A stretch of DNA of 40,197 nucleotides, taken from assembly GCA_037441385.1 (NCBI GenBank), contig JBBISH010000054.1, forward strand, positions 1-40,197. Reading direction: 5' to 3'. Of the stretch, positions 27,664-40,197 are shown piece after piece (position 1 is the stretch's first letter; every line of letters starts with the position of its first letter). The translations under genes were made by a program, and so were the position numbers. The DNA comes from Myxococcales bacterium (lineage in GTDB: Bacteria; Myxococcota_A; UBA9042). Under the pieces are notes generated by a model. That model saw nothing but the letters and a program-made list of their open reading frames with translations, was not told the DNA's origin and ran no database searches.

Positions 27664-29442
27664 ATGTCGCCCTTGCCCACTCCGTCGCAGTTGTTTGCCC
27701 AGGCCCGTCAAGCGCTGCAAGCGGGCCAGCCCGCCCAGGGCGCTCGACTCGCCCAGGCGGCCCGAGCGGCCTTTGCGGCGGCCGGCGCCCACGACCATGC
27801 CGTCAAGTCCATGATTCTCCAGTCGCGCTGCCAGGCGGCGACCGGCGACCTAGACCGGGCAGCCGCGACGCTAGACCAAGCGATCGCCCACGCCGAACGC
27901 TTTGACCGCCCGGCCGAGGCCTTGGCCGCACGCGGGGAATTGGGTGTCCTGCAAGAGCAATTGGGCCAACTGCCAGAGGCCCTGGCCACGCATCGCGCGG
28001 TGCTGGAGGCCCAGGAGCAGCGCCGCGACATCTTGGGTTCAGCCCTGGCGGCGGCCAACGTGGCGCGGCTGCTGCCGCGTGCCGCCAAGCCCGAGCACCG
28101 CCAGGAAGCCCAGCGCCAGGCGCTGCAATTGCTGCTGCGCGCCGGTCAGGGCTTTGTCGCCAGCGGCAAGCCGGCCTTGGCGGCGCAAGTCCTGGTGGTG
28201 CTTGGGTCCGAACAGCGCAGCGCGGGCGAATTGACCGACGCCGCGAGCACACTACGCGATGCCTGCCGCGCGGCCGACGCCGCCGATGATGCGCGGGTGC
28301 GCGCCTCCGCACGACTGAACCTGGGTCACGTCCTGCGCGATCGCGGCGAGATCGACGCCGCCCGGCAGAACTTTGCGATCAGCGCCGACCTTGCCGGTGC
28401 GTGTGGCGATTTGCTGGGCCAACTGCGGGCGCGGCAAGCGGCCCTGGTGTTGGGCCTGGACAGTGTGCCCGCCACCCAAGCGCTGCAGCATCTGCGCGAC
28501 CTTGTCGGCGAGTTTGCGGCGGCGGGCCAGGTGGCGGCGGCGCTGCCCCTGCGGGCGAACTTGGGCCCGGCCCTGGCCCGCGCTGGTCAGCTGCGGCTTG
28601 CTTGCCACGAACTGGCCGCGACCTTGCGCGAGTTGCAGCAAGCCGGCGAGCGCCTGGGTGTGGCGGAAGTGCAGCTGACTTTGGCCGAATTGCAGTGGAC
28701 GCTTGGCGAGTTCGCTGCGGTCGACGCCACGGTGATGCGGCTCGCGGCCGACGACTTGCCCGAAAAGCTCGCCGTCCGGCTTGCGCTGTTTCAAGCGCGG
28801 CGGGCCAGCGCACAGCTGGACCTGCCGGGCACCCAGGCGGCGTTGACGCGGGCTCTGTCGGGCGAGCCGTCGCATGCGACGCAGTTCGCCGCCGGCCTGA
28901 TCCAGGCGCAACTGGGCACGTGGCTTGGCGATGGTTCGGCGGGGCCGCTGCTGCACGGCTTGCTCGACTTGGCGCAGGCGTCGCCCCGCGAACTGGCCGC
29001 GGCAACCTTGGCGCAGGCGGTGGACGTGGCGTGGCAAGGGGACCGCGACCGCGCAGCGCGGTTGGCTGCCAAAGCCTTGGAAACGTGGGACTTCCTGGGC
29101 GAGCCGCTGGCGCAGGCGTCTTGTCAGATGCTGCTAGGTTGCTTGGGGCGTGCGGACTCCGCCGCTGGGGCGCAGCTACTGGAGGATTTGCGGCGCGAGC
29201 AGCTGACCGAGGCGTACACCGCGTTGCGCGGCGCACTTTGTGCACAAACTGAGGATCTTGTTGGGGTTTTGTCCGCGGTCGAGGCTTTGCGGACCCTGGG
29301 TTGGGCCGCGGCTGCGCTCGCCCTGACACGTCTGTCACGTCTGACCCTGGCAAGTCCGCAACTGATTGAGTGTGAAGCTAGTATTTGGTCCAGTGCCGCG
29401 CAGATTCAGGGTGCCGCGGCGGGTCTGGATACGGCGACCTGA
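27664..29442 (+). CDS. Ala/Leu-rich TPR-like helical repeat protein
   Basis: Repeats such as ARGELGVLQEQLGQLPEALATHRAVL and ARLNLGHVLRDRGEIDAARQNF; no catalytic motif seen. Confidence 0.7.
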   Translation: MSPLPTPSQLFAQARQALQAGQPAQGARLAQAARAAFAAAGAHDHAVKSMILQSRCQAATGDLDRAAATLDQAIAHAERFDRPAEALAARGELGVLQEQLGQLPEALATHRAVLEAQEQRRDILGSALAAANVARLLPRAAKPEHRQEAQRQALQLLLRAGQGFVASGKPALAAQVLVVLGSEQRSAGELTDAASTLRDACRAADAADDARVRASARLNLGHVLRDRGEIDAARQNFAISADLAGACGDLLGQLRARQAALVLGLDSVPATQALQHLRDLVGEFAAAGQVAAALPLRANLGPALARAGQLRLACHELAATLRELQQAGERLGVAEVQLTLAELQWTLGEFAAVDATVMRLAADDLPEKLAVRLALFQARRASAQLDLPGTQAALTRALSGEPSHATQFAAGLIQAQLGTWLGDGSAGPLLHGLLDLAQASPRELAAATLAQAVDVAWQGDRDRAARLAAKALETWDFLGEPLAQASCQMLLGCLGRADSAAGAQLLEDLRREQLTEAYTALRGALCAQTEDLVGVLSAVEALRTLGWAAAALALTRLSRLTLASPQLIECEASIWSSAAQIQGAAAGLDTAT

Positions 29443-29477
29443 TCGCGTTGTCACGGCGCGTTCCCTTGACTTCCCTT

Positions 29478-29493
29478 TGGCGCGTGCTTGGCT
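29478..29493 (+). promoter_or_regulatory. Possible sigma54-type (-24/-12) promoter upstream of lon
   Basis: TGGCGC-GTGCT-TGGC has GG and GC at the canonical spacing, but the -12 element is imperfect. Confidence 0.25.
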
Positions 29494-29569
29494 ATGCTCA
29501 ACGTGGGGCGGCGGCGCGCCGACCTGCAAGCGAAGCCAACGGGCCAACCAGACGACGCGCGAGGAATAC

Positions 29570-31951
29570 ATGAGTTCGGACACCACCCTCAACGGGATCA
29601 ACCTGCAATCGATGCCGATTCTGGCACTGCGCAACGCCGTGCTGTTCCCCGGCGCGGTGATGCCCGTGGTCATCGGGCGCGGCAAAAGCATCAAGCTTCT
29701 GGAAGGCTTGGGCGATCGCCGCCAAACCGTGGTGGGCGTGGTGGCGCAGAAGGACAAGGGCGTGGACAACCCCAAGCCCGACGACCTGTACTGGGCCGGT
29801 TGCACCGGTCAGCTGATCAAGGTGCTGCGCAACGGCGCCGAGACCTACCATGTGGTGATCCGTGGCCTGGAGCGGTTCCGCATCCACTCGTTCGAGCAGG
29901 AGGATCCGTTCCTGCAGGCCAACGTGGAAGTGCTGCCCGAGAAGGCCGAAAACGATCCGCAAATCGCCGGTCTGGTCCACAACATCCGCGACTCGGCCGT
30001 GGAGTTGGTGGGCATGGTGCCCGACAACCCGATCAGCGCCTCGGATTTGCAAGAGAACTTTGAGCACCCGTCGCGGCTCGTCTATCTGCTGATGACGCAC
30101 CTGTCGGTGTCGGTCGAAGAAAAGGTCGACGTGCTGCAGGCGGCCACGCTGCAGGAGATGTTGACCAAGACCCTGCAACTGGTGATTCAGCAAATCGAAG
30201 TGCTGCGGATCAGCCAGCGCATCAACAGCGAGGTCAAGGGCGACCTGAACAAGAGCCAGCGCGAGTACGTGCTGCGCAAGCAACTGAAGGCCATCCAGAA
30301 GGAGCTGGGCGAGCTCGAGGGCAACGAAGGCGACGAGCTGGGCGAGCTGGAAGAGCGGCTGGTCAAGGCCAAGCTGCCCGAAGACGCTCAGAAAATCGCC
30401 AACAAGGAGCTCAAGCGCCTGCGCAATATCCAACAGGGCTCGCCCGAGTACACCGTGGCGCGCACCTACTTGGAGTGGTTCGCGGACATGCCCTGGCAGA
30501 CCCTGAGCGACGACAACTGGGACCTGAACAACGCCCAGCGCGTGCTGGACGAGCGCCATTACGGCCTGGACAAGGTCAAGAAGCGCATCATCGAGTACCT
30601 GGCTGTCAGCAAGCTGAAGCAGGACATGCGCGGCCCGGTGCTGTGCCTGGTCGGGCCTCCCGGCGTGGGCAAGACGTCGCTCGGTCACTCGGTGGCGCAG
30701 GCGCTGGGCCGCAAGTTCCAGCGGATGAGCTTGGGCGGTGTGCGCGACGAAGCCGAGATCCGCGGCCACCGCCGCACCTACATCGGCGCCCTGCCCGGCA
30801 AGATCATCATGAGCCTGAAGAAGGCCGAGTCGCGCAACCCGGTGATGATCTTGGACGAAGTGGACAAGCTGACCCACGACTGGCGCGGCGACCCCACGGC
30901 GGCGCTGCTGGAGGTTCTGGACCCCGAGCAGAACAACGCCTTTACCGATCACTACCTGGACACGCCCTTCGATCTGAGCAAGGTGCTGTTCATCGCCACG
31001 GCCAACTCGCTGGACACCATTCCGGCGCCGCTGCTTGACCGCATGGAGGTGATCGAGCTGTCCGGCTACACGCACGAAGAGAAGTTCCACATTGCCAAGG
31101 AACACTTGTTCCCCAAGCAGTTGAAGGAGCACGGCCTGACCGCCGAGCAGTGCGTGGTCAGCGACGAGATCATGGCCAAGGTCATCTCGCACTTTACCCG
31201 CGAGGCCGGCGTGCGCAGCCTGGAGCGGCGCATGGCCGACATCTGCCGGCAGGTCGCCGTCAAGATTGCCAAGGAAGAAGCCAAGTCCATGACGATCACC
31301 GAAGCGGATCTGGACGATATGCTTGGCAACTTTGTCTACGAGCCCGAGGTGGCGACCCGTACCGAGCAGCCGGGCGTGGCCACGGGCATGGCCTGGACCC
31401 GCGTGGGCGGCGACCTGCTGTTCATCGAGGCGACCAAGATGCCGGGCAAGGGCAAGATGCGCCTGACCGGCCAACTGGGCGACGTGATGAAGGAATCGGC
31501 GCAGATCGCGCTGTCGCTGGTCGAGGCCAACGCCGAGCGGCTGGGCATCGAGCGCAAAGCCTTCGAGGACTGGGACATTCACGTCCACTTCCCTGCCGGC
31601 GCTACGCCCAAGGACGGTCCGTCGGCGGGCGTGACCATGTATACCGCCCTGGTTTCGCTGCTTTCGGGCGTGCGGGTGCGCGGCGATGTGGCGATGACGG
31701 GCGAGGCGACGCTGCGCGGCCTGGTGCTGCCGGTGGGCGGCATCAAGGACAAGGTGCTGGCGGCGATGCGCGGCGGCATCAAGAAGATCATCCTGCCCGA
31801 GAAGAACAAGAAGGATCTTCGCGACATCCCGGCCGAGGCCCGCGAAGGCGTGGAATTCGTGTTCGCGCACCGCATGGACGACGTGCTGGAGCACGCTCTG
31901 GAAGTGCCGCCGTCGCAGTGGAGCAAGACGACCACCCACGCCACCGCCTAG
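29570..31951 (+). CDS. lon: ATP-dependent Lon protease (endopeptidase La)
   Basis: GAGGA RBS; N-domain LRNAVLFPG; Walker A GPPGVGKT; Walker B ILDEVDK; catalytic PKDGPSAG and GGIKDK. Confidence 0.98.
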   Translation: MSSDTTLNGINLQSMPILALRNAVLFPGAVMPVVIGRGKSIKLLEGLGDRRQTVVGVVAQKDKGVDNPKPDDLYWAGCTGQLIKVLRNGAETYHVVIRGLERFRIHSFEQEDPFLQANVEVLPEKAENDPQIAGLVHNIRDSAVELVGMVPDNPISASDLQENFEHPSRLVYLLMTHLSVSVEEKVDVLQAATLQEMLTKTLQLVIQQIEVLRISQRINSEVKGDLNKSQREYVLRKQLKAIQKELGELEGNEGDELGELEERLVKAKLPEDAQKIANKELKRLRNIQQGSPEYTVARTYLEWFADMPWQTLSDDNWDLNNAQRVLDERHYGLDKVKKRIIEYLAVSKLKQDMRGPVLCLVGPPGVGKTSLGHSVAQALGRKFQRMSLGGVRDEAEIRGHRRTYIGALPGKIIMSLKKAESRNPVMILDEVDKLTHDWRGDPTAALLEVLDPEQNNAFTDHYLDTPFDLSKVLFIATANSLDTIPAPLLDRMEVIELSGYTHEEKFHIAKEHLFPKQLKEHGLTAEQCVVSDEIMAKVISHFTREAGVRSLERRMADICRQVAVKIAKEEAKSMTITEADLDDMLGNFVYEPEVATRTEQPGVATGMAWTRVGGDLLFIEATKMPGKGKMRLTGQLGDVMKESAQIALSLVEANAERLGIERKAFEDWDIHVHFPAGATPKDGPSAGVTMYTALVSLLSGVRVRGDVAMTGEATLRGLVLPVGGIKDKVLAAMRGGIKKIILPEKNKKDLRDIPAEAREGVEFVFAHRMDDVLEHALEVPPSQWSKTTTHATA

Positions 31952-32197: not shown

Positions 32198-33373
32198 ATG
32201 GAATTCTTAGCCTTGGCGGCGCGCGGCACCGCGGATTTGGTGGCGGCGGAGTGCCGCGCCTTGGGCCTGAAGGTCACGCGCACCGATGCCGAAGGCGTAC
32301 ACCTTGACCTGTCGTGGCGCGAATTGGCTATTGCATTGGTGCACTTGCGAGTGGCACAGCGGCTGATGGTCGAGTTGGGGAACCACCCGGCTTACGACGG
32401 CGACTCGCTGTACGCCGCAGCGCGCAAGGTCGATTGGGGCGAATGGCTGGATGCCCGCTCGACTTTTGCAGTGTATGCCTCTGGCGACATGGTGCAGCCG
32501 GGCAAGACGCCCGAAGGGCGGCCGCACGCGGGCCTGACCAACCTGCAGTTTGTGGGCGTGCGGGTCAAGGACGCCATCGCCGACGACTTGACGAGGCGGC
32601 TGGGCAAGCGGCCCAACGTAAGCCGCGATGATCCGGTGGTGGCGGTGATGGTGCGCGGTCGCCAGGGCCGCTGGCACTTCTACCTGGACGCCGCCGATCC
32701 GCCGCTGTTCCAGCGCGGGGTGCGGATGGCCGACGTGGAGGCGCCGCTGAAAGAGACGCTGGCCGCGGCCTGCGTGGATCTGTGCGGCTGGAACGGCAAA
32801 GGCAAGCTGATCGATCCGATGTGCGGCTCGGGCACGCTGGTCATCGAGGCGGCGAGCAAAGTGCTTGGCCTGGCGCCGGGCTGCACGCGGACGTTTGCCA
32901 TCGAGCGCTGGCCACACCACGGCAAGACGCTGCAGAAGTGGTGCAACGAAATCCGCACGGCGGCAGTGGAAAAGGCCAAGGCGGCCTTGGAAGCGCCGCA
33001 CTTGGACATCGAGGCTTGCGACCTCGATCCAGCGGCCGTGCGCGCGACGCGGGCCAACCTGGAGAACGCCGGCTTGGCCGACGTGGTGCGCGTGGAGTGC
33101 CGCGACGCCCGCCAGCTGCCGGCACAGCCGCCTGGGACCGTCTTGCTGAGCAACCCGCCGTACGGCCAGCGTTTGGCGCCCGGCGAGGCCGAAGGGTTGT
33201 GGCAGGAACTGGGGTCGGCGTGGCGTGGCAAGGGCTTGGCCCAGGCTTGGCTGCTGGCGCCGCCCGAGCTTGGCGAGGCACTGGGCTGGGAGCGCAAGCG
33301 CAGTCACCCGCTGACCAACGGATCGCTGGACGTGGCCCTGCAGGCCTTTGCCGAACCGGCTGCCCAATCTTAG
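32198..33373 (+). CDS. THUMP-domain RNA guanine-N2 methyltransferase (stand-alone RlmL-like)
   Basis: VKDAIAD, APLKETLAAA, DPMCGSGT, NPPYG. Confidence 0.9.
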   Translation: MEFLALAARGTADLVAAECRALGLKVTRTDAEGVHLDLSWRELAIALVHLRVAQRLMVELGNHPAYDGDSLYAAARKVDWGEWLDARSTFAVYASGDMVQPGKTPEGRPHAGLTNLQFVGVRVKDAIADDLTRRLGKRPNVSRDDPVVAVMVRGRQGRWHFYLDAADPPLFQRGVRMADVEAPLKETLAAACVDLCGWNGKGKLIDPMCGSGTLVIEAASKVLGLAPGCTRTFAIERWPHHGKTLQKWCNEIRTAAVEKAKAALEAPHLDIEACDLDPAAVRATRANLENAGLADVVRVECRDARQLPAQPPGTVLLSNPPYGQRLAPGEAEGLWQELGSAWRGKGLAQAWLLAPPELGEALGWERKRSHPLTNGSLDVALQAFAEPAAQS

Positions 33374-33747
33374 CCAGAGCCAGATCGAACCGCGCATCTG
33401 AAGCGTCGCAGTGCCGCTGCCGCGCTCGCCGTCCTGTGTGGGGCGGTGGGCGATGTGCAGGGGGGCGCGGCCGGGGTGGCAGCGCACCTGTCCCACAACG
33501 GGGAGGTGGGCCGTACCGCAAGTGCGGTCTGGTGGTAGGGTACTGCGTGGACGGCTCTTCGGCTGGTTGCTAGACTGGCGGCGGACGGCGCGCATGGCAA
33601 GATGGCAGCGGGACACCGCTTGCCTGAGCTGTGCGCCATCGGCGACTCGGTCTTGGCGAAATGGCCCCTGCGCAACGCACGGAGCACGCCCAGGCACGGG
33701 CGGGCAGCCACAGCCGCCAGACAGCGCGGAATGGCCAGGAGGAACTC

Positions 33748-34731
33748 ATGGATTTGCATACTTTGGGGCGTTCAGCGGCAAGTACCGCTCCGCGTCCGCG
33801 GCACAGCGGTTGGGCACGCTGGGTAGGCCTGTGCGCGGGTCTTGGCCTGCTGACCGCGGCGATGCCTGCACAAGCTGGCGAAGGCAATCTGTTTTTTGAA
33901 GACGGCGCCAGCTTGCTGCAAGGCTACTCGGTCATGGGCGGCGCTTTTGTCGAAGGCGGCGGGGGCGAACTGTCGGGCTGGAAGTACGACCACCCGCTGC
34001 GCCCGACCGGTTACGGCTTCCGCTACTACGAGCGCAACGGCTTCATCACCGGCACCATTGCCGCCATCGCCATCGCGGTGGGGGGCGGCATGGCTGCGGC
34101 GGGCCCCAAGCGCGTAGAAACGTGGGAATCGGGCGGCTACCGCTACACCCGCACCACCTACTACAGCCCGGCCGAGAAGGCCGCCATGGCCGCCGCCACC
34201 AGTGCCGCCGCCGCCGGGGCGTTCGGCTCGGCCAACCAGAGCTTTGACCTGGAGATCTACACCCGGCAAATGGGCGGAAACTCAGAGGGTTGGCGCGTCA
34301 ACGGCATGCTGTTCGGCGTGCCATTTGCCGACGGCCACGGCATGTTCGACATGGGTTTTGGCTACGCCAAGGTCGTGTCGGCCATCGGCGAGTCGGGCAA
34401 GTACTTGATCTCGAACTACCACTACCTGGGCATGCCGATGCGGCTGTCGTACGCATTTGGCCCCTTTGTCACCTACGCGCACTTTGAGTGGAACTGGCTG
34501 GGCCACAGCGACAGCACCGAGTACAACGGCAAGAACAACCAGAACCAGGGCACCGTGAACGGCAAACCCGTCGCCAGTGCGCTGACCGAGATCAATACCA
34601 CCGGATTTCCCTGGCGTTTTGGCGTGCAGGCCGCGCTCATCAGCCGGCTGTATTTGGAGGCCGCGCTGGTCACCCCCAACCTGACCTCCGGGTCGTTCGG
34701 CGGACACGCCACCATTGGCGCACGCTTCTAG
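33748..34731 (+). CDS. Exported protein, probable outer-membrane beta-barrel
   Basis: AGGAGG RBS before ATG 33748; signal ending PAQA; beta strands; C-terminal ATIGARF. Confidence 0.7.
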   Translation: MDLHTLGRSAASTAPRPRHSGWARWVGLCAGLGLLTAAMPAQAGEGNLFFEDGASLLQGYSVMGGAFVEGGGGELSGWKYDHPLRPTGYGFRYYERNGFITGTIAAIAIAVGGGMAAAGPKRVETWESGGYRYTRTTYYSPAEKAAMAAATSAAAAGAFGSANQSFDLEIYTRQMGGNSEGWRVNGMLFGVPFADGHGMFDMGFGYAKVVSAIGESGKYLISNYHYLGMPMRLSYAFGPFVTYAHFEWNWLGHSDSTEYNGKNNQNQGTVNGKPVASALTEINTTGFPWRFGVQAALISRLYLEAALVTPNLTSGSFGGHATIGARF

Positions 34732-34749: not shown

Positions 34750-35559
34750 ATGGCATTGAATTTCGTGGTCCGGGCCAAGCGCTCGGGGCTGGCGGCACTG
34801 GGCCTGCTGGCGTTGGCAACCAGTCTGATTGCGCCGCAAATCGCGGTGGCTAAAGAAGAAGTCGGCCCGTTCGGCTTGTCTCGCAACGGCGTGGTCACCG
34901 GTGTGTTCGGTACCACCACGCGCAACTACCAAGACGGCAGCAAGACCAAGCAGTGGGACGGCAAGCAATTCTACGTCAATTTTGAAGGCGGCCTCTTTGG
35001 CAAGGTCTCGCCCCTGGGCAACCTGGGCGGCCTGGAGCTGCTCGCGGCCATGGGCTACGACGGAGCCACCCCAGACGGCGCCGACAGCAATCCGCGCGGG
35101 CCACTACTTGGTGGATTCCTCTACGACTTTGCGGTCGGCTTCCCGGTCACCCTGTTCCACCAGTTCACCGACGGCAAGGACCGCTTCCAACTGCAGTTGT
35201 CGCCTGGCTTTGGCATCAGCCACATCCACGCGTACCTGTACGTCAAGACCAAGGCGGCCTACCAGATCACGCCGGACATCGCCGCCGAAGTGCAGTGGCA
35301 ATGGTGGCCCGGCCCCACCAGCGTGATGTGGAACAGCGGCTTTGGCGTCAACCAGCAGTCGGTCAAAGGTTCGGTGTACTTGGGCCGCGCCGGCAGCACT
35401 GGCCTTGCCGTGTTTGCCGAGTACCTGACCAGCGAAACCGAAGAAGAGAAGCCGGGTTTGCCCGTCAGCGGCGCGTTTGGCGGCAAGAATCCCTTTACCC
35501 GCACCGAGCGCAGCGACTACGAAAAAACCCTGCGCTTGGGCGTGGGCGCGGCGTTCTAG
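34750..35559 (+). CDS. Exported protein, probable outer-membrane beta-barrel
   Basis: GGAGGA RBS; signal peptide; C-terminal LRLGVGAAF. Confidence 0.7.
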   Translation: MALNFVVRAKRSGLAALGLLALATSLIAPQIAVAKEEVGPFGLSRNGVVTGVFGTTTRNYQDGSKTKQWDGKQFYVNFEGGLFGKVSPLGNLGGLELLAAMGYDGATPDGADSNPRGPLLGGFLYDFAVGFPVTLFHQFTDGKDRFQLQLSPGFGISHIHAYLYVKTKAAYQITPDIAAEVQWQWWPGPTSVMWNSGFGVNQQSVKGSVYLGRAGSTGLAVFAEYLTSETEEEKPGLPVSGAFGGKNPFTRTERSDYEKTLRLGVGAAF

Positions 35560-35571
35560 GAGGGGCAAGCC

Positions 35572-36636
35572 ATGCGCAACTTTTTGGCACTACTTGTTGT
35601 TTTGCTTGGCGCCGCCGGCTGTCTGCCGCACCTAGAGGACCCGCCGTTGACCGCGACGGGCGAGGCGCCGGCGAACTGGTCGGCCTCGTCGTCCAAGTCG
35701 ACCACGACGGGTGGCGAGGCGGACGTCAAGTCCACGACCGACACCAGCTCGGCCACCAGCGCGGCGACGTGCACCGGCACGTACAACGGCACCTTGACCG
35801 AGGCCAGCACCCAGCCCACCAAGCCGCCGTGCGTGGTCACGGGCACCGTGTCCGTGACCAAAGTGCCGGGAACCAAGTTCCGCGCCACATTGGCCGGCAT
35901 CCAAGAGATCGGCATCTTGGGCCTCAACGCCGACGTCGACATGAGCAGCTACTTCCCCAAGCTCACCAAAGTCGGCAGCTTGCAGGTCAGCGGCGGCGGC
36001 AGCGGCCAGTCGATGCAGATCCCTTACTGGTTGACGTCGCTAGGCAAGCTATCCGTTTTCAACACCGCGCTCGTCAGCTTCAACGGCAACACCGCCGTGG
36101 TTTCGGCCGAGACGATCGCTTTGTCGGGCAACAACTTTCTGACCACGTTCAACGGGTTTCCGAACCTGACGGTGCTCACGGACCTGCAGGTCGCGAACAA
36201 CCCGGTGTTGACCGACTTCAATGGATTCATGAGCGTCCAGTCCCTCCACCAGCTCAGCCTCGACCTGGGCCCAAAACTCACGGGCCTGGGCAGCTTCTCG
36301 GCGCTGAAGACCGTTACCTTCGATTTGACGATCACTGGCTCGCAGATGCAGGTGGTGGGCCAATTTCCACAGCTGACCACCGTCGCGTCGTGGTCGATGG
36401 GTGCCATGCCCGAAGTGACGGCGCTGAACTTCCCGTCGCTGACCAGCGTCAAGAGCATGGCGATGGGCAACATGGCCAAACTGGCCAACTTGGACGGACT
36501 TGGTTCGGTGGCGGTATCTGGAACGCCGATGATTTGCCTGGCGGCGATGCCCTGCGCAGCGCTGGATGCCTGGGTGGCCCAGCACGCCCCGGGCAAGACC
36601 AACAGTGGCTGCGGCGCGACGACCTGCAAGCAATAG
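35572..36636 (+). CDS. Lipoprotein with receptor-L-domain/LRR-like solenoid
   Basis: GGAGG RBS; lipobox AAGC; Ser/Thr-rich linker; repeats FPKLTKVGSL, FPNLTVL, FSALKTV, FPQLTTV, FPSLTSV. Confidence 0.75.
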   Translation: MRNFLALLVVLLGAAGCLPHLEDPPLTATGEAPANWSASSSKSTTTGGEADVKSTTDTSSATSAATCTGTYNGTLTEASTQPTKPPCVVTGTVSVTKVPGTKFRATLAGIQEIGILGLNADVDMSSYFPKLTKVGSLQVSGGGSGQSMQIPYWLTSLGKLSVFNTALVSFNGNTAVVSAETIALSGNNFLTTFNGFPNLTVLTDLQVANNPVLTDFNGFMSVQSLHQLSLDLGPKLTGLGSFSALKTVTFDLTITGSQMQVVGQFPQLTTVASWSMGAMPEVTALNFPSLTSVKSMAMGNMAKLANLDGLGSVAVSGTPMICLAAMPCAALDAWVAQHAPGKTNSGCGATTCKQ

Positions 36637-36713: not shown

Positions 36714-37766
36714 ATGACGCAGAGAATCACCGTTGTTTTTGATACCTACGGTGGCCAGGCCGGCCCGTCTGAGGTCGTGCGCGCTGCGGCGCGCATGTCG
36801 CGGCAGGGCGTAGCCCACGTACTGCTGGTGGGCGACGTAGCGCTCTTGCAGGATCAGCTTGGGCTGATTCCCTACGATCCCATGACGTTGCGACTGGTCC
36901 CTGGCGGTGCTGCCTTTCCGCGGCGGCCGGGCGACACCCTGGCCCAGGCCGAAGCAGCGCGCGTGGGTCTGCCGGTGGCGCTGCAGCTGTTGCGCGAGGG
37001 CGAGGCAGATGCCCTGATTTCGGCGAGCGATCCCGACTTGATCCGCGAGCTGGCGATTGCGCAACTCCCGTTGCTGCCTGGGGCGCGTTCGCTGGCAGCG
37101 GCAGCGGTGGTGCCGACCATGCCGCGCCCCGGTGCCGAAGAGCCGCTGGCGCTGCTGCTGGACGTCTCGGGGCGGCGCACCACAAGTGCAGACGACTTGG
37201 TTCAATTTGCGGTGATGGGCGCGTCGTACGCGCGATCGGTGTCGGCAGTGGCCGAGCCGGCCGTGGCGCTGCTGTCGACCGGGCCGGGGCCGCAAGATGG
37301 GCCGCCCGAGGTGGTCGAGGCGCATCGGCGCCTGAAGTCGATGGGTGGGCTGAAATTCGTAGGCAACATCCGGGCTACGGACCTGTCGCGCGGCCTGGCC
37401 GACGTGGTGGTGGCCGACGGCCTGGTGGGCCACACCGTGCATGGGCTGCTCGAAGGTCTGACCGACATGACCGTAGAGGCTGCGCGCTACGCCTGGAAGG
37501 CCAAGATGACCTGGCGCGTGGGACTGCGGCTGCTGAGCCAAGGCGTGGGTATGCTGCGCAAAGTCAGCGAGTTCAAAGACTACGGCGGCGCGCCGTTGCT
37601 GGGCTTGCAGCATCTGGTCTTGGTCGCGGCGGCGGACTCGCGCGAGCCCGCGTTCGAGAACGCCCTGAGATTGGCAGCCAAGTGTCATATCCGCGGCCTA
37701 CAAAGGGAATTGACGGCAACGATGGCGCAGATGCTGCCTGAAACCGCCGCGAGAGGCACCCCATGA
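36714..37766 (+). CDS. Divergent PlsX-like protein (phosphate acyltransferase fold)
   Basis: Colinear with PlsX (LLVGD, ADALISA, LLLDV, LVQFAVMG, FVGNI, DVVVADG, YGGAPLLG), but many signature residues are altered. Confidence 0.75.
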   Translation: MTQRITVVFDTYGGQAGPSEVVRAAARMSRQGVAHVLLVGDVALLQDQLGLIPYDPMTLRLVPGGAAFPRRPGDTLAQAEAARVGLPVALQLLREGEADALISASDPDLIRELAIAQLPLLPGARSLAAAAVVPTMPRPGAEEPLALLLDVSGRRTTSADDLVQFAVMGASYARSVSAVAEPAVALLSTGPGPQDGPPEVVEAHRRLKSMGGLKFVGNIRATDLSRGLADVVVADGLVGHTVHGLLEGLTDMTVEAARYAWKAKMTWRVGLRLLSQGVGMLRKVSEFKDYGGAPLLGLQHLVLVAAADSREPAFENALRLAAKCHIRGLQRELTATMAQMLPETAARGTP

Positions 37767-38872
37767 GCCCCGCCGCCGCCAGCCCGCCGCCCGAGGTCGT
37801 GTACCGCTGGGACCTGGACAAGACCTATCTGCACACGGATTTTTCGACCGTGCAGGGGCTGCTCACCGCCGCGATCGAGAGCGCGCAACGCCGCAGGACC
37901 ATTCCGGGAATGCGCGCGCTGCTGTCGGCGCTGTCGCAGACCTTTGACGCGCGCGTGGTGGTGGTATCCGGCAGCCCGGTGTTCTTGCGACGGCGCATTC
38001 TGGCGATGTTCCAGCTGCACGGCATCCGCTGCGATCGCTTGGTGCTCAAGGACTTTGGCGCGGCGCTGCGGCGCGGTCGGGTGCGCACGCTGTCGGCGCA
38101 AGTGCCGTACAAGATGCGCGCGCACCTGGAGACGCGGCTGTGGCTGGCGGCGCGCGACGAGACGGCCCCCGAGATCTGCTTTGGCGACGACGCCGAGGTG
38201 GACGCCCTGGTCTATTGCCTGTACGCCGACGTGTGTGCCCGCCGTGTGCCCCCGGCGCGCTTGGCGCGGATTCTGGACGTCTGTGGCGCCTATCCCGATG
38301 AAATCGAAGCCATCTTGGAGCGTGCCGGGCTGGTGGCCAACGCCGATCCGGTGCGGCGGATCTTCATTCACCTGGAGGGCAATTCGCCGCCCAGCCGCTT
38401 TGGGGCCTACCGCGGACGGGTGACGGCGACCTTCAATGCGCTGCAGATCGCCCTGAATTTGGCCAGCGAAGGCCTGGCGGACGAGCGCGTCTTGACCGCC
38501 GTGGCCGAGGAGTTGGTCCGCGAGCACAAGATTGGCGCCGATGGCCTGGCGGGCTCGATCGAGGACGCGGCGCGGCGCGGGCTGTGCACCCGCGAGCTGG
38601 CCGAGCGGCTGGTGGTCGAGATCCTGCCGCGAACCGCGGCGTTGGATGCCGGCTTCAGCGCCGATTTTGGCCAGCGCGTGGCGCGGCGCCTTGGCCAGAG
38701 CATGCCGGTGGATAGCCCAAGCAGTCTGGCGAACGAACTGCCGCAACCCCTGCCGTACGAACAGCTTTTTGAGGCCGAGCGCGCGTTCGCTCACGCCAAG
38801 AAGCTGGCGCGCAAGACCGCCGAGCGCATCGGTGGGCTGACCGATTTCTTGGGATCCCCGCACGACGACTGA
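37763..38872 (+). CDS. HAD-superfamily phosphatase, App1/lipin-like phosphatidate phosphatase family (DUF2183-like)
   Basis: WDLDKT (DxDxT), VVSGSP, YK, FGDDAEVD; ATGA overlap with the PlsX-like gene. Confidence 0.75.
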   Translation: MSPAAASPPPEVVYRWDLDKTYLHTDFSTVQGLLTAAIESAQRRRTIPGMRALLSALSQTFDARVVVVSGSPVFLRRRILAMFQLHGIRCDRLVLKDFGAALRRGRVRTLSAQVPYKMRAHLETRLWLAARDETAPEICFGDDAEVDALVYCLYADVCARRVPPARLARILDVCGAYPDEIEAILERAGLVANADPVRRIFIHLEGNSPPSRFGAYRGRVTATFNALQIALNLASEGLADERVLTAVAEELVREHKIGADGLAGSIEDAARRGLCTRELAERLVVEILPRTAALDAGFSADFGQRVARRLGQSMPVDSPSSLANELPQPLPYEQLFEAERAFAHAKKLARKTAERIGGLTDFLGSPHDD

Positions 38873-38896
38873 TCGAATCCGAACGGGAGGACCGCC

Positions 38897-39952
38897 ATGC
38901 CCATGACCAAGCAAGCGCCGACCGCTACAAAGAAAACTCCGGCGCCGCAGAGTGGACACACGCCGAACACCACCTCTTCGACCCACCAGCAGGCGCAAGC
39001 GCAGCTCAAGGGCACGGGCGGCTACGCCCAGCAGCAGGCGGCGGTCAAGCCCAAGCCGGTCGCGCCGACGAGCAAGACGGACACCAAGCCCGCGACCAAC
39101 CTGGGGATTCCGGGCGCGGCGGGTCAGGCGCAAGGCGGCCTGCCGGACACATTGCAGACCTTGCCCAGCGGCAAGCGGGTGGCGCACGGCACCGATCCCG
39201 GCGATTTCTATTGCGAACACATGTTCTACTCGACCCAGGTGGCCGCCCAGCAGCCGGGCACGTCTATCCTACGCAATGAGCAGGGTGAGTCGCTGACCGG
39301 TTTCTTGCACATGCCGGGCGATCGCGAGGCCACAGACAACGCCAGCGAAGACTACACGCGCAAAACCAGCCAGAAGGACGCGCAGGCGGTGGTGGGCTCG
39401 GCGCTGCGCGGCTGGATCGACACGGCGCTGCCGCAGGTCAGCTCGGGGCCGGTGCGCATGCTGTTGACCGGCTACGCCAACTGGGGCTCGGTGGTGAACA
39501 ACCCCACCGGCGGCTTTGTGTCGGCCAAGAAGAACCTGGACGCGGCGATGGCCCAGGCGTTTGGGGCGCAGTTGAAGACCAAGCAGGGCAAGGCCGTGGA
39601 TCAGGGCGCCGGCACTCACGTTTTCCAGACCTGGTCGTACCGCATCGCCACCGCCACGGGCGAGCGCGAGGTGCAGCTGCGCGGGCAAGTCTTCCCAGTG
39701 GGCGACGAGACCATCGATCGCGGCGCCGCCTCGGTGCAGCAGGCCATCGCCGATTGGGCGCCCCATGGCGTGCTGTCGATGGGCGTGGCGGTGGGGCACG
39801 ACGACTTCTTGGCCGAGCACCACGCCGACGATGGCGGCCTGGACGACGCCCACGCCAAGCACGACGACGCCCAGGGTCCGCGGCACAACCTGCCGGACAA
39901 CTATGCGCTGGCGCGGGGCATTCAAGCCGGCCAGAAGGCCAGGGGCAAGTAG
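38897..39952 (+). CDS. Circularly permuted pyroglutamyl-peptidase I (peptidase C15)-like protein with low-complexity N-terminal leader
   Basis: GGGAGG RBS; DPGDFYCEHMFY and GFLHMP precede MLLTGYANWG..NPT, VFPV, VLSMGV and LAEHHA. Confidence 0.75.
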   Translation: MPMTKQAPTATKKTPAPQSGHTPNTTSSTHQQAQAQLKGTGGYAQQQAAVKPKPVAPTSKTDTKPATNLGIPGAAGQAQGGLPDTLQTLPSGKRVAHGTDPGDFYCEHMFYSTQVAAQQPGTSILRNEQGESLTGFLHMPGDREATDNASEDYTRKTSQKDAQAVVGSALRGWIDTALPQVSSGPVRMLLTGYANWGSVVNNPTGGFVSAKKNLDAAMAQAFGAQLKTKQGKAVDQGAGTHVFQTWSYRIATATGEREVQLRGQVFPVGDETIDRGAASVQQAIADWAPHGVLSMGVAVGHDDFLAEHHADDGGLDDAHAKHDDAQGPRHNLPDNYALARGIQAGQKARGK

Positions 39953-40077
39953 CGGCGACCGCGCGGAATTGCGAACGCGGACGCGGGCGGGCTGGGGGCG
40001 AAGTTCCCGCAGCGACACGGCCGTGGTAGGCTTGCGGGTACAATGCGCACACGCCAGCGCAGCAAGAGCCTGCACGC

Positions 40078-40197
40078 ATGAAAGTCCTTGAAACACGGGT
40101 CTATCAAGGCCCGAACCTGTATGCACACTTCCGCTGCATGCGGCTGACCCTGCAGCTGGGCGTCCTGGAAGACTGGCCCAGCGCCAAAATCCCAGGC
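40078..40197 (+). CDS. cphA: Cyanophycin synthetase N-terminus (3'-truncated by window edge)
   Basis: Manual translation MKVLETRVYQGPNLYAHFRCMRLTLQLGVLEDWPSAKIPG resembles the CphA N-domain start (..GPNxY/W..RLxLDLGxLExxPS..IPG). Only 40 codons are visible. Confidence 0.8.
   Translation, partial: MKVLETRVYQGPNLYAHFRCMRLTLQLGVLEDWPSAKIPG

Follow-up and report, generated by a model that had tools for sequence, protein, structure and literature searches.

A probable natural circular permutant of the pyroglutamyl-peptidase I fold in uncultured myxobacteria

Pyroglutamyl peptidase I (Pcp; MEROPS C15, clan CF, PF01470) carries its catalytic residues in the linear order Glu-Cys-His. Can the same active site arise from a chain that presents them in another order? 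The question is raised by an open reading frame (ORF) at 38897..39952 on the + strand of contig JBBISH010000054.1, from the Myxococcales bacterium assembly GCA_037441385.1; the stretch analysed, called the window here, is 40,197 nucleotides long. An earlier note, made from the letters alone, had found the blocks of Pcp in this ORF in rotated order and proposed a natural circular permutant with an intact triad, ordered Cys106, His138, Glu307. Our analysis points the same way, and we give a probability of about 0.82 to the reading that the protein is a genuine natural circular permutant of the Pcp fold, working as an amide hydrolase with this Cys-His-Glu triad.

Swapped-order homology to pyroglutamyl peptidase

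If the gene is a permutant, Pcp profiles should match it in two pieces and in reversed order, as the earlier note had pointed out. The Peptidase C15 model of Pfam showed little of this: the protein of the window (P0001) gave no Pfam match, with PF01470 absent even at E <= 10, whereas 9 of 31 aligned family members showed PF01470 matches below the gathering score of 22.7 bits (best E 5.3e-4). In P0170, positions 1-29 of PF01470 match residues 251-279. The NCBIfam model for pyroglutamyl-peptidase I (NF009676) reached 18.6 bits on P0001 (E 0.0014), below its cut-off of 199 bits, and matched the Cys-His block only (residues 102-148 to profile positions 139-177 of 215). With phmmer, P0001 as a single sequence retrieved only chance sigma-factor matches from the PDB, at E ~0.3.

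We therefore turned from the single sequence to the family. A word-indexed protein search returned 87 proteins at E <= 1e-3, query included, and 31 of these were aligned (alignment A1) and used as a family profile. Searched against PDB sequences, this profile retrieved nine at E <= 10, and the top six, with E values of 0.016-0.75, were all Pcp chains (2ebj, 1iu8, 3rnz, 5z47, 5z40 and 1aug). Every one of these six was matched in swapped pieces: profile positions 183-199 fell on chain positions 2-18 and 262-298 on 37-68, while the earlier positions 96-142 fell on 134-172.

For a direct comparison, hhalign was run, with alternative alignments allowed, between the core of the family (residues 79-351) and 19 canonical Pcp domains; these came from genomes of the phylum to which the window belongs, and one partial match (L025) was excluded. 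Two matches were obtained. Residues 183-349 align to Pcp positions 1-134 (Prob 95.7, E 9.6e-9) and residues 82-172 to positions 120-209 (Prob 95.0, E 3.5e-8), so that the two jointly cover positions 1-209 of 211; a third alternative alignment fell to Prob 0.7. Controls with one reversed and five column-shuffled Pcp alignments gave Prob 0.1-2.3 and E >= 0.02. The resemblance to Pcp thus exceeds chance, and the rotated order of the blocks, along with the two split matches expected of it, is borne out.

Within these matches, Glu307, Cys106 and His138 are column-aligned to the catalytic Glu, Cys and His of Pcp, and all three are invariant, and in identical order, in 31/31 sequences of the alignment. 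Direct reading of the DNA confirmed each of the motif positions given earlier, including MLLTGYANWG..NNPT from Met188, FPV and LSMGV. The proposed nucleophile, Cys106, is encoded by TGC at 39212..39214 in the motif DPGDFYCEH; its aligned counterparts are the Cys of the G.Y.CN motif in canonical Pcp and, in 3rnz_A, Cys144. The proposed general base, His138 (CAC, 39308..39310), lies in GFLHMP and aligns to the His of GF(I/V)HVP. The third member of the triad, Glu307 (39815..39817), lies in LAEHHADD and aligns to the Glu of ER.A.N. In the Bacillus amyloliquefaciens enzyme we take the corresponding triad to be Glu81/Cys144/His168. The inference of a natural circular permutant with its triad intact is supported by these alignments and by the swapped profile matches.

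The protein therefore shows profile-level homology to Peptidase C15 and clan CF across its catalytic domain and holds the catalytic Glu, Cys and His within conserved C15 motifs, but it scores below both the PF01470 gathering score and the NF009676 cut-off and departs from the linear Glu-Cys-His order. As a homologue of C15, it probably shares C15-like chemistry.

Layout of the domain and its predicted structure

Laid out along the gene, the catalytic domain falls into two segments. Segment A (residues 82-172, 39140..39412, + strand) corresponds to the C-terminal part of Pcp, positions 120-209, and includes the Cys motif, the His motif and the long terminal helix of canonical Pcp. Segment B (residues 183-349, 39443..39943, +) corresponds to Pcp positions 1-134 and contains LLTGY..NNPTG, FPV, LSMGV and AEHH in turn. 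Between the two hhalign matches lies the junction (residues 173-184, 39413..39448), formed by the end of the long helix and a short linker from the old C-terminus to the old N-terminus. Both hhalign matches overlap at Pcp positions 120-134. The tripeptide 'LPD' is near-invariant at each end of the permuted domain, at residues 82-84 (nucleotide ~39140) and ~333-335 (nucleotide ~39893); this twin motif, although a short stretch, could be a relic of an intermediate in which a tandem duplication was followed by truncation.

Segment B also holds a family-specific insert of a helix and a beta-hairpin (residues ~213-254, 39533..39658), opposite which the profile of canonical Pcp has gaps of 18 and 22 positions. 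Residues N213, D215, F222, G223, L226 and Y248 of the insert are conserved, and in the structure model it forms a helix at 211-225 and strands at 232-237 and 242-252. Beyond the triad, the 31-sequence alignment shows four further invariant polar positions next to the catalytic residues, namely E107, H108, D311 and H322. The catalytic domain is preceded by an N-terminal region rich in T, A, P, Q and K (residues 1-78, 38897..39130), which is predicted to be disordered; it contains no hydrophobic or transmembrane-like segment, and the predicted local distance difference test score (pLDDT) is below 50 for most of residues 1-77.

An AlphaFold2 model built with the same alignment gave the core (residues 79-351) as one domain, with a mean pLDDT of 81.5 and a predicted template modelling score of 0.79. 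In this model, helix 155-180, the equivalent of the C-terminal helix of Pcp, runs on to strand 186-193, the LLTGY beta1 with which canonical Pcp starts. An exhaustive VIA-align search placed two Pcp structures best of 48,161 chains, aligning model residues 185-350 to chain residues 2-130, and the model fragment 79-184 aligns to 3rnz_A 120-206. A Foldseek search of the PDB yielded nothing but tyrosine phosphatases, at TM ~0.2; its aligner respects sequence order, so failure on a permutant is expected and the result carries no information. The ESM Atlas gave no usable match.

The pocket can be compared in the same way. Position by position, F10, F13, F142 and V143 of 3rnz_A are matched by Y193, W196 (where the consensus has F), F104 and Y105, and Q71 is matched by V297. 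We take F10, F13, F142 and V143 (and also Q71) to line the pyroglutamate (pGlu) pocket of Pcp; at the first four of these positions aromatic or hydrophobic character is retained, although the identities differ.

Under the permutation reading, then, the last part of Pcp (Cys motif, His motif and terminal helix) now comes first, as residues 82-172, and a short linker joins it to the former N-terminus, which runs from beta1 through the Glu motif (183-349). The new termini would have been opened near Pcp position ~120-134, and the protein most likely closes into a single Pcp-like alpha/beta domain behind a disordered arm of 78 residues. In such a domain Cys106 would attack an amide bond, His138 would serve as the general base and Glu307 would keep the histidine in position. 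The enzyme is presumably catalytically competent.

Set beside Pcp (1AUG, 3RNZ, 2EBJ, 1IU8), the family shares profile homology over the whole catalytic domain and the equivalent motifs LLTG(F/Y)..NP(S/T), LPV/FPV, G.AGG followed by Glu, G.(F/Y).C and GF(I/L)H.P, and Pcp chains are its best structural matches. It differs in that Cys-His-Glu replaces Glu-Cys-His, with the old termini fused and new ones near Pcp 120-134; in adding the ~40-residue insert, the four invariant polar residues and a variable disordered N-terminal arm; and in falling below the Pfam and NCBIfam thresholds. Purine nucleoside phosphorylase and MTA-SAH nucleosidase are fold neighbours. Permuted members are also known from other cysteine-hydrolase superfamilies: NlpC/P60 groups, for example (the LRAT and YaeF/poxvirus G6R types), went through a similar event, in which the Cys and His domain segments were swapped and the fold and active site were kept in a distinct family; these have a papain-like fold, however, unrelated to the alpha/beta fold of Pcp.

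The gene, its family and its surroundings

The reading depends on the ORF being a real gene, and the window itself gives some reason for caution. At 66% GC, its DNA contains many long spurious ORFs on both strands, including opposite-strand ones such as 39269..40126 that are products of this base composition, and P0001 has no Pfam match. Rotated blocks might come from a chimeric assembly or from the decay of a tandem duplicate, or the likeness of motifs might be a matter of chance in a spurious GC-rich ORF. The gene has the marks of a genuine one, however. As described before, it is a single uninterrupted ORF (351 amino acids, with its stop codon within the coordinates) and has a ribosome-binding site, GGGAGG, at 38885..38890 (+), which direct reading places 6 nucleotides before the ATG. 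Its GC content at third codon positions is 0.88. The start MPMTKQ is common to its closest homologue (P0002), and two further homologues (P0003 and P0004) begin at the same alignment position.

A 452-base contig from a sequencing run of a different study (X2), ~89% identical to the window, spans 39074-39525 and so bridges the junction of the Cys-His half with the LLTGY half. Another run (X1) covers the whole stretch identically, but is possibly the source sample and hence not independent. The same order of segments is found among the 87 homologues, which come from many independent assemblies, a check that the earlier note had proposed; one of them, P0025, lies on a contig of 6.98 Mb. The chimera that would have undone its proposal is excluded by these assemblies together with the X2 contig, and with the negative hhalign controls and the coding evidence the artefact reading as a whole is refuted; we leave it hardly any probability.

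How large is the family? An exhaustive search of representatives at 50% identity found 318 clusters at E <= 1e-3, 213 at E <= 1e-10 and 157 at E <= 1e-30; the best 150 of the 318 are listed, and the weak tail may include cross-matched canonical Pcps. Among 16 genome loci of the permuted gene, 14 belong to metagenome-assembled genomes labelled Myxococcota, Myxococcales or Deltaproteobacteria, one to a 'bacterium' and one to a 'Klebsiella sp.', a label that is doubtful given the GC content of the locus (69%). When 121 genomes were sampled evenly across the phylum, four proved to have the permuted gene and 47 to have canonical PF01470; a fifth weak match (in G094) proved to be the N-terminus of a canonical Pcp and was set aside. 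Among closer relatives, the permuted gene occurs in 6/10 other genomes of the same genus, in 1/14 genomes from other genera of the family and in 0/16 genomes from other families of the class.

The permuted domain also appears as part of larger proteins, each such fusion having been observed in a single cluster. In long proteins it often stands at the C-terminus, as in P0111 (958 amino acids), P0120 (971), P0135 (949) and P0168 (1354). The last of these, a metagenomic protein, combines a patatin / CBASS-type phospholipase domain (~500-795) with the permuted C15 domain (1039-1332), a two-hydrolase architecture reminiscent, by analogy, of effector proteins. P0007 joins a PLAT domain and an N-terminal transmembrane helix to the permuted domain, P0105 joins PSD1 to it, and the homologue at L044:3074-4186 (+) ends in a LysM peptidoglycan-binding module (residues 328-370). 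In several members a polar N-terminus is followed by one hydrophobic span (residues ~70-150), which P0001 lacks; P0001 has neither a signal peptide nor a transmembrane segment, and most members are without a Sec signal or lipobox. P0001 has no PADLOC match either. In P0047, P0059 and P0069 the catalytic domain follows a stretch that resembles an EF-hand (D.D.NGQISRQEF); Pfam EF-hand matches are weak (2/31 members, best E 0.019).

Around the gene, the window contains Lon protease (29366-31951) and an RlmL-like methyltransferase (32198-33373) upstream, and closer to it PlsX (PF02504, 36714-37766, +) and an ORF with an APP1-like phosphatidate-phosphatase domain (PF09949, E 1.1e-7; 37763-38872, +). 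The latter two overlap by 4 nucleotides (ATGA), an arrangement that suggests translational coupling of two lipid-metabolism genes just ahead of the permuted gene. Between the methyltransferase and PlsX lie three + strand ORFs (33631-34731, 34750-35559 and 35572-36636; 366, 269 and 354 amino acids) without a Pfam match at E <= 1e-3. Downstream, an ORF that runs off the end of the window (40078-40197, +) is the N-terminus of a cyanophycin synthetase: over 40 amino acids it is 95% identical to the start of a gene at the syntenic locus L031, whose product has PF18921, ATP-grasp and Mur-ligase domains.

Synteny is limited to close relatives, linking the window with L031, and L038 with L039 and L043. 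The distant loci were compared for a shared neighbour that might be an immunity-like partner or mark an operon, and they have none in common. Lying next to cyanophycin synthetase and the APP1-like phosphatase is therefore a feature of the genus only and carries no functional weight. At L038, L039 and L043, the permuted gene adjoins a convergent pair made up of an M24 Xaa-Pro-type peptidase gene and an MR/MLE enolase-superfamily gene, and in two of these three loci it is followed by a conserved ORF encoding 319-325 amino acids without an assigned role.

Substrate, role and meaning

What might such an enzyme cleave? One indication could come from the genomes that carry it. A six-frame search found no canonical PF01470 in the genome of the window (90.9% complete), nor did canonical PF01470 turn up in any of the 7 permutant-bearing genomes of this genus. 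The two genes do occur together in 3/10 more distant genomes (G149, G156 and G157). Across all 19 genomes with the permuted gene, three also have canonical Pcp, as against the 47/121 of the phylum sample. We considered mutual exclusion of the two genes on these figures; most of the 19 genomes are kin, so no conclusion on it is drawn.

One account is that the permutation was neutral and the protein is an ordinary cytoplasmic pyroglutamyl peptidase, which removes N-terminal pGlu as Pcp does and replaces the canonical gene. A Pcp-like omega-peptidase would fit the retained aromatic pocket positions (on our assumed list of pocket residues), the conserved triad and the lack of an export signal or membrane segment. 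The missing canonical gene in the window's genome and its same-genus relatives would fit as well, as would the name 'pyrrolidone-carboxylate peptidase' that the Joint Genome Institute (JGI) pipeline gives to 12/87 homologues. Against this, absence within one genus is not independent evidence, and the canonical and permuted genes coexist in the three genomes named above. Canonical Pcp is also without the invariant E107, H108, D311 and H322 and the conserved insert, and neither the 78-residue disordered arm nor the fusions of some members to LysM, PLAT, patatin or membrane anchors suit an ordinary cytoplasmic peptidase. We consider this account rather unlikely. On a second account, the domain may be an effector or amidase module directed at the envelope or membrane, which has taken on a new substrate (a peptidoglycan stem peptide, a lipid-linked amide or a protein of a target cell) and is delivered or anchored by the arm or the fused domains. 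Its position at the end of four large proteins, the phospholipase domain of P0168, the PLAT domain and transmembrane helix of P0007, the LysM end of the L044 homologue, the hydrophobic span of several members and the variable genomic context with no conserved partner all speak for such a role. Each fusion comes from one cluster only, however; a Sec signal or lipobox is missing from most members, P0001 included; no immunity-like neighbour recurs among the loci; PADLOC is silent on P0001; and the neighbours of the gene within the window are housekeeping genes. We rate this role as no more likely than that of an ordinary pyroglutamyl peptidase.

For the circular permutant itself, the invariant polar cluster, the conserved insert, the co-occurrence with canonical Pcp and the lipid- or wall-binding fusions fit a new specificity. 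Because of the extra invariant polar residues, the conserved 40-residue insert and the LysM, PLAT and patatin fusions, the substrate is probably not a classical pGlu-peptide; we infer an amide whose small N-terminal or blocked group is bound in the aromatic pocket. A bolder and, in our judgement, doubtful version makes the domain a new catalytic module whose substrate is unrelated to pGlu-peptides, such as an envelope, lipid-linked or protein-side-chain amide. E107, H108, H308/H309, D311 and H322 would then form, with the insert, a new binding or metal site, and the module would be deployed both alone, with the disordered arm for targeting, and as the C-terminal warhead of multidomain proteins (the patatin, PLAT and LysM fusions).

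The permuted C15 homologue founds an undescribed family, mainly of uncultured myxobacteria. We found no description of a permuted C15/Pcp or of this family in the full-text literature, whose coverage leaves out Pcp-structure papers in subscription journals; the only paper containing both terms searched for a permuted Pcp is about lactococcal plasmids. NCBI records label the proteins hypothetical, and the JGI naming indicates that the similarity to Pcp has already been picked up automatically.

What is described here would be a case of natural circular permutation in peptidase clan CF, marked by a clear two-match signature and an invariant triad. The family, of ~160-320 sequence clusters, is missed by Pfam and NCBIfam models and mostly labelled 'hypothetical'. 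The permutant would offer a natural test case for the extent to which re-wiring of an alpha/beta hydrolase active site is tolerated, and it draws attention to uncharacterised cysteine hydrolases, some fused to lipid- or cell-wall-targeting domains, in myxobacteria, a group rich in predatory and secreted enzymes.
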